The notes: generated from the letters alone by a model not told the origin. A stretch of 64,000 bases of DNA from Alphaproteobacteria bacterium (GCA_025360605.1 JANYBV010000038.1:12449-76448); one strand, 5' to 3'. Shown: positions 57,644 through 64,000, counted from the stretch's first letter. Numbers and translations are program-made.

Positions 57644-58807
57644 TTATCGCAGATTGGCTGCTTTTCGCTGATTGGCCTGCGACTCTCTGGCCACCTGATC
57701 GGCCATTGCGACCACCTTGTTCATTTCTGCTACAATAAACGGTGATACATCCGCAACTAAAACGCGGTCACGCACGTTCGGGAATTTGCTGCGGGCTTCG
57801 GCGATGGCATTTTCTACCGGTAATGTATTGGTCGTGATGACCTGCTTCACCAAAAGAGAACCGTCTTTATTGCGGGCGGCGAGAAACGGGGCCAGACCCT
57901 TGGAAAAAATACCATGCGGTGCGGCGGTGAAGATTTCTTTGGCGCCGTGGTTGTCGGCCTGCTCGGCGGCATGGATACTGGTGCCGCCGCCATCAAACAT
58001 ATCATCGGCCAGCACTACTGTTTTACCCGCCACATCGCCGTGGAATGACACCACATGCGACTGGCCTGCCGCTTGCCGTTCTTTTTCAATCCCGAACATG
58101 TGGGATTGCGGATCATCCTCGCCATGCAATGATTTGGCGATTTCAACCGCGCAGCTAAATGCTTGATCGGTGGGTTTGTTCCAGCCATCGGGTGCCCCGT
58201 TAACCACATTGGACGCATCAGGACCAAATTTTTCCTTCAGCAGGGGCACCATGATGTCGGGCATTTCCACGACGCTGATATTCTTGCCGAAGGTTTCGGC
58301 AAATTGCTCAACACCCGCCTTGGAATGCGGCGCGATGAACGTGACGTAATCCACACCCGCCGAGGCCAGCTCTTTGGCAAACATGGGATTGGCAAACGAT
58401 GTGCCACGATTCGGATAATCCTTGTCCTCGCGCAGGTCATAAAACGGGAACACCATGTGAACGGCTTTGGCACCAAAACGCTTGGCATTATTGGCGGCCA
58501 GCTTGGCATAGGCAAAATTTTCGGCATAAGGCCTGCCGACGGACTGGACGATCGTCACCACACTGCCTTCGAGTTGCTGCTTTCCGTCGCGTATCTGATC
58601 CTCGGTGAAACCCGCCACTTTCGGCCAGAACTCGACATACGGCATGCCACCGTCAATATAGGTGCCCTGACTAGTCGGTATTTCGGTCGCCTGTGTAGAC
58701 TGGGCGATATTTTCAATCAGGCCCATAGACAGGCCTTTGCCAAATACCACAAAATGTTTTCTGTCTGGCGCTACCATTTTGCTTGAACCTCCGGTGTCTA
58801 CTTTCAT
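57644..58807 (-). CDS. Divergent ribose-phosphate pyrophosphokinase (Prs)-like protein
   Basis: 387 aa. Prs-like layout with VTIVQSVGRP, HMVFPFYDLRED and FIAPHSKAG. PRTase loop VVLADDMFDGGGT. Start uncertain (M1 or M11). Confidence 0.75.
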   Translation of the reverse strand: MKVDTGGSSKMVAPDRKHFVVFGKGLSMGLIENIAQSTQATEIPTSQGTYIDGGMPYVEFWPKVAGFTEDQIRDGKQQLEGSVVTIVQSVGRPYAENFAYAKLAANNAKRFGAKAVHMVFPFYDLREDKDYPNRGTSFANPMFAKELASAGVDYVTFIAPHSKAGVEQFAETFGKNISVVEMPDIMVPLLKEKFGPDASNVVNGAPDGWNKPTDQAFSCAVEIAKSLHGEDDPQSHMFGIEKERQAAGQSHVVSFHGDVAGKTVVLADDMFDGGGTSIHAAEQADNHGAKEIFTAAPHGIFSKGLAPFLAARNKDGSLLVKQVITTNTLPVENAIAEARSKFPNVRDRVLVADVSPFIVAEMNKVVAMADQVARESQANQRKAANLR

Positions 58808-58941
58808 ATTATCTGCATTATATTTACTAATTATTTTAAACTTTAAATGAAAATATTACCGCTGTCATAAAAACTTAACTTTATATTAACCATATTCTAT
58901 AGTACGCCAACAAGCTATCTACAAAACAAGGGGTTGGCTTT

Positions 58942-62175: not shown

Positions 62176-62178
62176 GTC

Positions 62179-64000
62179 ATGGCCGATGCTTTCTCAGGCA
62201 ATGCAGAACATGTGGGGCCGGATTTAGCTGCACAGGGTGTGCGTTACGGTATTTCGATAGGCCGCCGCGCACCGATGCATAAAATGCATGTGGATTGCCT
62301 GCGCGAGATTAAAGAAGCAGGGCTTGAACCCGTCGTATTCATCGGCTCCACCAACGACGCTCAGAGCGCGTTTTATGATCCCGTTCGCAATCCCCTGACC
62401 GTAGACCAGCAAAAAGAACAGCTGCGCATTGCCGCACCGGATGTGTATAACGAAAAACATATCCTGACACTCCCCGATCAGGGGGATTCCGAACTATGGT
62501 TCAATAGTTTTTTTACAATGATTAAGGGCACTGATTTTGAAGATAAATCGGTGGTTCATTATCGTTCCAAAGCCGCCGACGCACCTCAGGCCGGAGGAAA
62601 AATAAACCCCCTTAGTTCCTATATGAGCAAGTTTATCTCTCACGGCGTACCCGCATGGGAATCGTTTAACAGCGATCCCGCCGATGACAGCATCCACGCC
62701 AGCGATCTGCGCAAGGTTGACCTTGGACACATGGACACTACGCAACGCGAGTTATTTGCCGCACCCGATTATATTGCCTCCATCGCTAAAGAAGCACGCG
62801 AAAGCAATCCTGACCGCGCGTTACTGGATGAGGCGCATGTTCCTGTCAGCGTACTCGACCTGACGCTTGACCGCCTGCGCAAGGAAGCTGACATTTCCAC
62901 CGCAGACATTATGCAACACGTAACCGACGCACAGCAGACCCCTGATCTGGACACGCTCGCCGATGCCGCGAGCACGCTGAACAAACAACGACTACAACCA
63001 CGAGGTGTTATGCCCGCTCCTGAAAATTCATTTCAGCTTAAAATTGCCTCCGCAAGCTGTAACCAGACCGGTGGGGACTGGCCGCGTAACGTTAAAAATA
63101 TTTGTAAAGCCATTGATAGGGCCGTTGCCGACGGGGCCGATATCCTTGCACTCGAAGAGCTGGGACTCACAGGCTATGAGCGCGGTGATGATTTCTACTA
63201 TTCCGACAACATGAAAACGCGAGAAATGCTGGAAACCATTGCTGCCTACGCTGCCAGCAAAGATCCCAATCTGGTCATTTCCATCGGTCATCCATGGTTT
63301 TTTGCGGACAAATCTATCCCCGATCAGGATGAACGCCGCAAAAATCCGATCTATAACCGCATCAACAATAACTTCAACACACAGTCATTGCTGGCAGGCG
63401 GCGAGATTGTTTCCATGTCGGACAAGCGTTACCTGTTCAATTATGAACGCGGCTATGAAAAGCGTCATTTTGAAGAATGGAGCGATGCCCACGCCAACCA
63501 ATATGAAAATGAGCATGGCAAAGGCCGTGACGGTACGATCATGGTCGAGTTACCGGAAATCCGCTACCCGGATGGCACTTCCCTGCCCAAGAAAGTCATC
63601 CCGTTTGGTAGTCCGGTTGTGCAAATCGGCGAAGGTGAGAAAAAAGCCAACCTGTATCACATGATCTGTGAAGAATACTGGATCGGCTCACGCTATGACG
63701 GTTCGGCCGATAATAAGGATTATGAGCGTGATAATGCGCTGCCGCAAAAGGCGAGAGACTTCGATATCTCGGTGACCATCAACCCGAACGCCAGCCCGCC
63801 GGTCGCCAATAAAATCGATAAACATTACGAGCTGTGCAAACTGGCTTCCAACCATTGCGGTGTCATCGTGCATACTGACGGCCTCGGCAGCTCCGGCTCC
63901 ACCTTTGCCCAATTCGGCAGCCGCCTTATGGCGCAAAACGGCGAAATCATTTCAGAAGGTGTCCGCAATAGCTTTGAGGACGTGGCCTATACCAGCCAAA
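62179..64000 (+). CDS. NadM/archaeal-type nucleotidyltransferase domain fused to glutamine-dependent NAD synthetase (NadE); C-terminus beyond window end
   Basis: Hand translation from ATG 62179 shows no stop to the window end (607 codons), so the ORF is absent from the track. N-terminal part: GISIGRRAPMHKMHVDCLREI...VVFIGSTND...NPLTVDQQKEQL (NMNAT-like). From about aa 278: FQLKIASASCNQTGGDWPRNVKNICKAIDRAVADGADILALEELGLTGY, SDKRYLFNYERGYEKRHF and HMICEEYW (CN-hydrolase Glu/Lys/Cys of the NadE glutaminase domain). Confidence 0.75.
   Translation, partial: MADAFSGNAEHVGPDLAAQGVRYGISIGRRAPMHKMHVDCLREIKEAGLEPVVFIGSTNDAQSAFYDPVRNPLTVDQQKEQLRIAAPDVYNEKHILTLPDQGDSELWFNSFFTMIKGTDFEDKSVVHYRSKAADAPQAGGKINPLSSYMSKFISHGVPAWESFNSDPADDSIHASDLRKVDLGHMDTTQRELFAAPDYIASIAKEARESNPDRALLDEAHVPVSVLDLTLDRLRKEADISTADIMQHVTDAQQTPDLDTLADAASTLNKQRLQPRGVMPAPENSFQLKIASASCNQTGGDWPRNVKNICKAIDRAVADGADILALEELGLTGYERGDDFYYSDNMKTREMLETIAAYAASKDPNLVISIGHPWFFADKSIPDQDERRKNPIYNRINNNFNTQSLLAGGEIVSMSDKRYLFNYERGYEKRHFEEWSDAHANQYENEHGKGRDGTIMVELPEIRYPDGTSLPKKVIPFGSPVVQIGEGEKKANLYHMICEEYWIGSRYDGSADNKDYERDNALPQKARDFDISVTINPNASPPVANKIDKHYELCKLASNHCGVIVHTDGLGSSGSTFAQFGSRLMAQNGEIISEGVRNSFEDVAYTSQ

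Follow-up and report, generated by a model that had tools for sequence, protein, structure and literature searches.

A divergent nicotinamide-to-NAD gene cluster with a NadM-like::NadE fusion in an alphaproteobacterial genome, probably an accessory Preiss-Handler operon

Which route to nicotinamide adenine dinucleotide (NAD) is encoded by the genes at the end of a 64,000-nucleotide stretch of DNA from an Alphaproteobacteria bacterium (GCA_025360605.1, JANYBV010000038.1:12449-76448; this whole stretch is called the window), and what could the cell use it for? Positions 57644-64000 hold five open reading frames (ORFs), one on the minus strand and four co-directional ones on the plus strand, which resemble enzymes of nicotinamide salvage. 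They probably form an accessory Preiss-Handler salvage operon with its own supply of phosphoribosyl diphosphate (PRPP), and there are good grounds to regard the cluster as a variant of the known prs-nadV and pncA-pncB-nadD-nadE operons and not as a new kind of system. The features are listed below, with lengths in nucleotides (nt) or amino acids (aa); coordinates are those of the window or, past its end, of the contig region L001.

57644-58807, minus strand: Prs-like gene, 387 aa
58808-58941: divergent AT-rich intergenic spacer, 134 nt
58942-60678, plus strand: NAPRT gene, 578 aa
60693-61907, plus strand: PncA-like gene, predicted nicotinamidase, 404 aa
61912-62175, plus strand: orf87, 87 aa
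62179 onward, plus strand: fusion gene, its frame still open at base 64000
62179-63003, plus strand: fusion protein residues 1-275, NadM-type adenylyltransferase domain by fold and motifs
63034-64000, plus strand: fusion protein residues 286-607, glutaminase (CN-hydrolase) domain, PF00795
L001 10314-12947 (1865-4498 nt past base 64000), plus strand: 877-aa gene, NadR-type N-terminus and Nudix-like C-terminus

The ORF list bears out the original prediction of a Prs-like gene and, 134 nt away and pointing in the opposite direction, four co-directional genes separated by 14, 4 and 3 nt. The predicted order and coordinates of the gene set stand as well; its last ORF extends further, to 1213 aa on the contig (L001 6628-10269, of which 1820 nt lie past the end of the window), and the 877-aa ORF, which starts 44 nt after it when the contig is read past the window, continues the cluster. 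Because each ORF has family matches or conserved homologues, and the fusion retains its catalytic motifs across 39 of 39 aligned proteins, the ORFs of the cluster are judged to be real genes and not chance frames.

In the proposed pathway, the insertion-bearing nicotinamidase would convert nicotinamide to nicotinate, and the Prs-like paralogue would form PRPP from ribose-5-phosphate and ATP. NAPRT would then join nicotinate and PRPP to give nicotinate mononucleotide (NaMN), the NadM-type N-terminal domain of the fusion would convert NaMN to nicotinate adenine dinucleotide (NaAD), and the enlarged glutaminase-synthetase part would convert NaAD to NAD with glutamine as donor. The Nudix part of the 877-aa protein may feed ADP-ribose back to the ribose-5-phosphate pool. 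As had been predicted, each step between nicotinamide and NAD has a candidate gene here, PRPP supply included, and all the candidates are divergent or enlarged; homology, conserved residues, fold and comparative genomics give this predicted pathway good support. Gene order, domain content, catalytic residues, the N-terminal fold of the fusion, overlap with canonical genes and patchy occurrence are direct observations; the substrate specificities, the sequence of the last two steps and the physiological purpose are inferred. The earlier description of every enzyme as atypical is a fair one: the Prs-like protein, the PncA-like protein and the fusion score below equivalog cut-offs and NAPRT barely passes.

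The Prs-like protein falls below the cut-offs of TIGR01251 (103.5 bits, cut-off 113) and PF13793 (21.8, cut-off 25) and above those of PF14572 (38.9, cut-off 27) and PF00156 (29.2, cut-off 26.3). All 30 of its solved relatives at E<=0.01 are ribose-phosphate diphosphokinases (PRPS) or PRPS-associated proteins, canonical PRPS being the best match (E 7e-17). In PRPS enzymes, functional roles belong to the ribose-5-phosphate/pyrophosphate (PP) loop motif and to a Lys and an Arg in the flexible catalytic loop. Aligned with E. coli PRPS, the Prs-like protein has DDMFDGGGT for DDMIDTGGT in the PP loop and EKERQAAG for DKRRPRAN in the flexible loop, where the Lys and the second Arg are kept; the retained residues are K242 and R244 of the flexible loop and D268-D269...D272-G-G-G-T276. 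The protein groups with other cluster-associated Prs-like proteins (136-170 bits), as their most divergent member, versus 63 bits to the canonical Prs of its own genome. Among genome contigs collected for comparison, 36 pattern matches gave 0 confirmed close relatives. The Prs-like protein is the probable product of a second, divergent ribose-phosphate diphosphokinase paralogue, acting as a dedicated PRPP synthetase, and it is tied to pyridine-nucleotide salvage by one related locus (L030) in which a Prs-like protein is fused to a NadM-like domain beside a NAMPT gene.

NAPRT is the sole cluster protein above an equivalog cut-off, which it passes narrowly (TIGR01513, 300.1 bits, cut-off 297.4). 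It matches PF17767 (97.9, cut-off 32.6) and PF04095 (36, cut-off 20.8), aligns with the E. faecalis NAPRT structure 2f7f at E 3.8e-52, and is the only NAPRTase_N match in the whole genome. The 404-aa PncA-like protein has no Pfam match, and its match to NF008623 (48.6 bits, cut-off 174) covers only residues 34-81; PF00857, the isochorismatase-family hidden Markov model, matches nothing anywhere in the genome. Nicotinamidases use a catalytic Asp-Lys-Cys triad and a D-x-H-x-x-x-H metal site. Aligned in three pieces with 2wt9, the nicotinamidase of A. baumannii, the PncA-like protein retains D20, the metal site QDYHPSNHISF, K254 and C308, and shows an insertion of ~110 aa (residues ~87-196) and a C-terminal extension. 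In seven related loci the same slot is occupied by a canonical isochorismatase-family protein of 223 aa. The 404-aa protein is a candidate nicotinamidase with an insertion.

The fusion protein begins with a domain that NCBIfam NadM/NMNAT models match weakly (E 4e-5 to 5e-3). Its AlphaFold model, built from a 16-sequence alignment, has a mean predicted local distance difference test (pLDDT) score of 89.5, and in a Foldseek search with this model ranks 1-5 and 7-10 were NadM proteins or archaeal NMNATs (E 5e-6 to 3e-4). The top structures are the NadM proteins 2qjo, 2qjt and 2r5w and the archaeal NMNATs 1f9a, 1hyb and 1m8j (target-normalised template modelling (TM) scores 0.68-0.70); sequence identity is 14-20%. 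In an alignment of this protein and 38 relatives, the motif GRRAPxHxxH with both His residues and the Arg of N/H-A-[ST]-x-[LI]-R are invariant in 39 of 39. The domain also occurs free-standing (228-265 aa) within the same order.

The rest of the fusion protein is an enlarged NadE. The glutaminase domain matches PF00795 at about 34.8-36.5 bits (cut-off 23.2), and the synthetase part matches PF02540 at 47.2 bits (cut-off 21) on the full ORF, with SGGADS at residues 680-685. The glutaminase Glu (LEEL/LQEL), K416, C497 and the SGGxDS motif are kept in all 39 proteins. The best solved structure is the glutamine-dependent NAD synthetase (NADS) 3ilv (E 1.4e-26), aligned in three pieces that are split by large insertions, and the NadE portion reaches ~930 aa versus 565-707 aa in solved glutamine-dependent NADS chains. 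All NCBIfam equivalogs are missed: NF010588 (113.1, cut-off 479), NF002730 (79.7, cut-off 473) and TIGR00552 (43.1, cut-off 63.65). From motifs and the modelled fold, the protein is predicted to combine three parts on one polypeptide, namely an adenylyltransferase fold of NadM type, a glutaminase and a synthetase for NAD; no description of a NadM::NadE fusion was found in full-text searches of the openly accessible literature or in the available part of PMC3376133.

The genome around this cluster is reported as 100% complete (57 contigs, 2.68 Mb) and contains canonical prs on contig C32 (388.6 bits), canonical nadD (129.2 bits), a canonical nadE of 547 aa (236 bits), nadA and nadC, which are the copies that the original prediction had proposed to look for. 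A nadB-like gene that adjoins nadC scores 354.5 bits, under a strict cut-off that 5 of 14 control genomes pass, and is likely nadB. The cluster appears as the only entry route for nicotinamide and nicotinate found in the genome, and it would duplicate the PRPP synthetase, adenylyltransferase and NAD synthetase steps. Because canonical prs, nadD, nadE, nadA, nadC and the likely nadB are present, the module is best described as a supplement to a complete ordinary NAD pathway; the suggestion that it is a lifeline for a bacterium lacking de novo synthesis does not hold for a genome with nadA, nadC and a nadB-like gene.

Of 7997 candidates scored against the enlarged NadE, 148 are relatives at E<=0.001. 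Among the best 120 of the 148, forms of ~1115-1225 aa cover the whole query, and forms of ~830-930 aa lack a counterpart of its first ~280 residues. A set of 34 related loci from metagenome-assembled genomes (MAGs), whose labels include Alphaproteobacteria, Micavibrio, Bdellovibrionales, Rhodospirillaceae and Legionellaceae, was compared by tblastn with the cluster proteins; seven of these loci, at less than 12 kb, are too short to show neighbours. The Prs-like gene was found in 20 of the 34, PncA likewise in 20, NAPRT in 18, the NadM-like domain in 14, orf87 in two and the C-terminus of the 877-aa protein in one. The layouts seen in related loci and in more distant clusters of the same taxonomic order are as follows.

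Recurring layout: Prs-like / NAPRT-PncA (400 aa)-fusion
Recurring layout: Prs-like / NAPRT-PncA (223 aa)-NadE (900 aa)
Prs-like / NadE (900 aa), found as an additional locus where Prs-like / NAPRT-PncA (400 aa)-fusion is also present
L030: NAMPT, NadM-like::Prs-like fusion (684 aa, 9944-11998), NadE (900 aa)
G109: Prs-like, NAPRT, orf87, CinA/PncC-family gene, fusion, then at some distance a Nudix protein
G027: NAPRT, PncA, orf87, fusion
G091: Nudix, NAPRT::PncA fusion, orf87, fusion
G190 (same genus): dnaB, alr, NAMPT-like gene, orf87, fusion, 247-aa homologue of the 877-aa C-terminus (below the NUDIX cut-off)

The gene in the PncA slot of G109 matches PF02464 with 147 bits. These layouts suggest that the module is modular, with a constant core of Prs-like protein, adenylyltransferase and enlarged NadE and an exchanged pyridine-capturing enzyme. 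Against the 34 related loci the NadE part shows 60-73% identity (two of these loci belong to its own genus and family), and against the three more distant clusters of the same taxonomic order (G109, G027, G091) 32-34%; NAPRT is 44-48% identical to the NAPRTs of G109 and G091 and 30% identical to those of Micavibrio-like clusters. By these identities the module of this genome is a mosaic.

The distribution is uneven. At E<=1e-30 the NadE part was found in 5 of 44 family genomes, this one counted, and in 1 of the 3 further genomes of its genus; for the fusion protein, a threshold of E<=1e-20 gave matches in 10 of 151 sampled genomes of the order, six of which cover only the free-standing N-terminal domain. 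Because of these patchy counts in family and order, the module is considered accessory. Its core lies downstream of dnaB-alr both here and in G190, where alr and orf87 are ~1.7 kb apart versus ~16.4 kb here; the extra DNA comprises a low-GC (guanine plus cytosine) stretch and genes for an ankyrin-subtilase protein, a flavin adenine dinucleotide (FAD)-oxidoreductase, the Prs-like protein, NAPRT and PncA.

Three further observations concern these relatives. The NAPRT::nicotinamidase fusion of G091 has 935 aa (L061 3339-6146). The NAMPT-like gene of G190 (L019 8120-9737) appears split over two frames of 258 aa and 327 aa, through a frameshift in the gene or an error in the assembly. Four MAGs carry two enlarged NadE paralogues each (L033/L037, L034/L040, L035/L038 and L026/L043), one fused to the NadM-like domain beside NAPRT-PncA and the other unfused beside a Prs-like gene.

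The order of the last two steps can be approached through 12 genomes that carry the enlarged NadE. Canonical prs is present in all 12, and an additional Prs-like copy in eight. Canonical nadE is missing in six. Four of these six have the unfused NadE without the NadM-like domain, and in three of the four (G156, G159, G160) canonical nadD is present; since NadD is there and the NadM-like domain is absent, the giant NadE of these genomes is best placed after NadD, acting on NaAD. The other two, G153 and G161, have the fused form and nadA and no nadD match over the cut-off, so the NadM-like domain is their candidate NaMN adenylyltransferase. In at least these two genomes it appears to replace NadD, a recognised antibacterial target (PMC3944813). 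The CinA/PncC-family gene of G109, if it encodes a nicotinamide mononucleotide (NMN) deamidase, also favours NaMN as the intermediate.

Several points weigh against this pathway. The NadM-like domain has H-x-x-H (here HKMH, residues 34-37), and the Gly of H-x-G-H occurs in 0 of 39 proteins. All cluster proteins except NAPRT score under curated equivalog cut-offs, so homology does not secure their substrate specificity. Three of the 12 genomes (G153, G156, G161) each hold a weakly NadE-like ORF of 38-48 bits, below cut-offs (L146 630-1502, L147 552-1463 and L148 340-2322, with 290, 303 and 660 aa, respectively), which weakens the argument by subtraction: the enlarged NadE is not proven to be the sole NAD synthetase of these MAGs, whose completeness is unreported. 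With canonical prs, nadD and nadE present, the genome has no evident need of a second set, and no regulator or operator was found for the cluster. The NAMPT variants, L030 and G190, retain the giant NadE though their salvage needs none, and the enzyme may have an extra role.

The same chemistry could serve to rebuild NAD from both of its cleavage products after attack by NAD-cleaving enzymes of abortive-infection systems, competitor toxins or a host. Nicotinamide would return through PncA and NAPRT, and ADP-ribose would return through a Nudix enzyme to ribose-5-phosphate and through the Prs-like protein to PRPP, a route from ADP-ribose that the available part of PMC2330246 proposes. A role in withstanding NAD depletion is possible because the parts for recycling nicotinamide and ADP-ribose are linked at one locus, and Nudix-family homologues of the 877-aa C-terminus occur in L019, L059 and L061. 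The module is also redundant with housekeeping genes and patchy, like an accessory trait, and the phage NAD reconstitution pathways (NARP), as far as the available descriptions go, show that conflicts can select for NAD rebuilding. On the other side, the Nudix match of the 877-aa protein itself is under the cut-off (13.8 versus 21.1 bits), with a homologue in one of the 34 related loci, and the fused enzyme looks like a main and not an emergency route in some genomes. The cluster proteins have no phage affinity: in the phage protein collection the nearest matches to the Prs-like protein are <=29% identical and the fusion has one weak match. PADLOC matched 0 of 14 cluster and neighbour proteins, and the SIR2_2 domain was not found in the genome. 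The suggestion of a counter-measure to NAD-depleting immunity found no support in these searches, and an anti-depletion module is unlikely. An equally doubtful extension would make the cluster a chromosomal cassette for NAD reconstitution in alphaproteobacteria that are host-associated or predatory, in which the fused NadM::NadE channels NaMN to NAD and which has spread laterally as an interchangeable kit, the lateral spread being read from identity levels and presence counts. Such a cassette would be a cellular, PRPP-based counterpart of phage NARP, entered through NAPRT and PncA, NAMPT or a PncC-family enzyme, and it has a low probability.

The last two steps could also run in the order of Francisella, where the NadE part would convert NaMN to NMN and the NadM-type domain would convert NMN to NAD. 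The Francisella NadM structures 2qjt and 2r5w are among the best structural matches, and in the NAMPT-containing variants NMN must be a substrate of the NadM-like domain. NadM-family enzymes use NMN well, and the available part of PMC3376133 pairs the Francisella NadM with a NadE homologue that acts as NMN synthetase. The unfused giant NadE, 70-71% identical, occurs in the genomes with NadD and without the NadM-like domain, where its substrate should be NaAD, and the CinA/PncC-family gene of one cluster, whose family includes NMN deamidases, would oppose a route through NMN. The NadE here bears a glutaminase domain like type F NADS; the Francisella enzyme is reportedly single-domain. The Francisella order is improbable, more so than the anti-depletion role.

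It is very unlikely that the cluster is simply the standard housekeeping salvage operon of its lineage. The position of orf87, fusion and Nudix after dnaB-alr in two genomes of the genus indicates vertical inheritance at least that far, and some Micavibrio-like genomes may rely mainly on the fused enzyme. The presence of canonical prs, nadD and nadE in this genome and the patchy counts of the giant NadE in genus, family and order stand against it. The original prediction had reserved this explanation for a genome without canonical copies and an arrangement universal in the order; because second copies exist and the arrangement is not universal, the cluster is not just the standard operon of the lineage.

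A deamidated form of NARP1, in which the Prs-like protein would pyrophosphorylate ADP-ribose, a NAPRT-like enzyme would join the product, ADPR-PP, with nicotinate to give NaAD directly and NadE would finish, has the NARP1 layout of a PRPS-like protein with a type II phosphoribosyltransferase (in the available descriptions) and a Prs-like protein that is always a second copy beside canonical prs (8 of 12 genomes) in its favour, and is scarcely credible beside a canonical PP loop, unlike the remodelled Cys215-Ser220 loop of the phage ICP1 enzyme Adps (available part of PMC13586617), solved relatives that are all PRPS or PRPS-associated (none of the 30 is named Adps, an entry for which is unconfirmed in the searched PDB copy), a NAPRT above the NAPRT equivalog cut-off, and an adenylyltransferase that such a route would not need and that is nevertheless linked in 14 of 34 loci and fused to the Prs-like protein itself in L030.

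The accessory Preiss-Handler operon favoured here has several known counterparts. In the available part of PMC2330246, the operons nrtR-pncA-pncB-nadD-nadE of Clostridium acetobutylicum and pncA-pncB-nadE of Pseudomonas are described, and as in such operons nicotinamidase, NAPRT, NaMN adenylyltransferase and NAD synthetase form one unit here. The differences are a predicted adenylyltransferase of NadM type instead of NadD, which is fused to the synthetase, a synthetase part of ~930 aa, a nicotinamidase insertion of ~110 aa, the attached Prs paralogue, orf87 and Nudix-containing protein, and the absence of any NrtR regulator or operator from the search results. The same source describes prs-nadV (and nadM) operons of Shewanella, Acinetobacter and Cytophaga, in species with two prs paralogues, and leaves open why a PRPP synthetase would be committed to salvage. 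Those operons likewise have a second prs beside a phosphoribosyltransferase, and the L030 layout, with NAMPT and NadM-like::Prs-like, comes very near to them; the partner here is NAPRT with PncA, a deamidating pair, and not NadV, and the Prs-like protein is under the TIGR01251 cut-off.

The NadM and NadM-Nudix proteins of Synechocystis and Francisella (2qjo, 2qjt, 2r5w) and the archaeal NMNATs are the best fold matches of the fusion N-terminus. NadM-Nudix is a bifunctional NMN adenylyltransferase/ADP-ribose pyrophosphatase, and the pairing of an adenylyltransferase with a Nudix domain recurs in the 877-aa protein. The domain described here differs by its low identity, by H-x-x-H for H-x-G-H and by its fusion to NadE instead of Nudix, while the 877-aa protein has a NadR-type N-terminus and a middle region of ~450 aa. 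The available part of PMC3376133 presents NadM as an enzyme that can be a bifunctional NMN/NaMN adenylyltransferase, paired with type F NADS in Acinetobacter and working with NMN synthetase in Francisella. Type F NADS (3ilv, 4f4h, 6ofb), which that text also covers, has the same succession of a CN-hydrolase Glu-Lys-Cys and a PP-loop synthetase with SGGxDS; in the fusion, insertions split the alignment in three, the best equivalog score is 113 bits against a cut-off of 479, and the NadE portion is longer.

Phage NARP1 (Adps and Namat), NARP2 (NAMPT and NMNAT) and NARP3 (a PnuC-like and a NadR-like protein) are compact NAD-rebuilding sets in the descriptions available, like this one, and NARP1 also places a PRPS-like enzyme beside a type II phosphoribosyltransferase. 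The module described here is chromosomal in an alphaproteobacterial MAG, has no close phage protein among the searched sequences and a canonical PP loop, and its predicted route is deamidating and requires NadE. If the biochemistry holds, the last two steps of NAD synthesis would lie on one polypeptide with a NadM-type domain, and the cluster would illustrate clearly how nature builds a plug-in module for NAD, in which the capturing enzyme is swapped and the core is retained. It would also be a test case for the salvage-dedicated PRPP synthetase, the question left open in the available part of PMC2330246, and for the role of the large NadE and PncA insertions and of the widespread orf87 domain. 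For this genome the cluster is a supplement to a complete NAD pathway, neither a lifeline nor a demonstrated immune counter-measure.

Orf87 and the 877-aa protein are conserved accessories of the cluster. Homologues of orf87 that are 33-62% identical and share an invariant SGYG occupy the same position in five other clusters (L017, L019, L059, L060, L061), so that six clusters, this one included, have orf87 immediately before the fusion gene. It has no match in Pfam, NCBIfam, PHROGs or PADLOC and no usable match in the ESM Atlas. Its structure model has a pLDDT of 80.2; Foldseek against PDB found nothing at E<=0.001, and the best hit of a wide structure search (PmrD, Z 5.3) is under the stated noise level. 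The complex prediction for orf87 with the NadM-like domain gave no verdict (score 0.00), which counts neither for nor against binding. The family has no Pfam model and is large (1520 representatives at E<=0.001). Most of the best 150 of these are free-standing and ~85 aa long, and in some the domain forms the C-terminus of SecA, of a type IV secretion system coupling protein, of kinase-tetratricopeptide repeat proteins or of an ankyrin protein.

The 877-aa protein has a NadR-type adenylyltransferase N-terminus with GKFNPPHNGH. Its middle region matches PGDYG weakly (17.6 bits, cut-off 27) and has an Atlas score of 0.79, below the lead threshold. The Nudix-like C-terminus, whose score below the cut-off is given above, has free-standing homologues of 211-247 aa in L019, L059 and L061, two of which are above the NUDIX cut-off. 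Nine relatives of the whole protein were found, and the forms of ~650 aa are without the Nudix part.

The spacer at 58808-58941 has promoter-like hexamer pairs on both strands (plus, 58875-58903; minus, 58868-58840), which are consensus matches only; a 5-kb scan gave 11 such pairs versus 5.7 +/- 2.8 in shuffled sequences. A 13-nt direct repeat, 85% identical, lies at 58839 and 58877. The repeat search found no long palindrome in the 134 nt, and the NrtR- or NiaR-type operators proposed for this spacer were not evident as palindromes by eye or in the repeat search, made without a motif model.

Past the window, at L001 17618-19043, a tyrosine integrase adjoins tRNA-Gln(CTG), beside a 250-aa ORF of unknown family. 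The distance from this tRNA to the FAD-oxidoreductase gene is ~17 kb here, with the integrase beside the tRNA, versus 200 bp in a genome of the same family (G077). An integrase-borne island beside tRNA-Gln was considered and dropped: no att-like repeat of the tRNA of >=12 nt was found, synteny with genomes of the same family is scrambled around the locus, and in two genomes of the same genus the tRNA is not adjacent to the FAD-oxidoreductase gene. The position of the module core after dnaB-alr in G190 also counts against an island.

Upstream of the cluster, the window from ~45460 to 55500 has a GC fraction of 0.45-0.48 versus ~0.51 for the contig. The genes in this stretch encode an unknown 325-aa ORF, a GIY-YIG protein, a response regulator and a histidine kinase, a TonB-dependent receptor and the ankyrin-subtilase protein, and in G190 no such stretch separates alr from the NAD module. 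The ankyrin-subtilase protein (52307-55465, minus strand, 1052 aa) has a signal-peptide-like N-terminus, ankyrin repeats, a subtilase S8 domain and a long C-terminal region, for which an autotransporter function is a guess. Between this gene and the cluster, a FAD-dependent protein of family PF21688 (55996-57612, plus strand) is 77-88% identical across differently labelled MAGs, with the labels Rickettsiales, Alphaproteobacteria, Phycisphaerales/Planctomycetota and Azospirillum; such unusually high identity could come from lateral transfer or from mis-binning.

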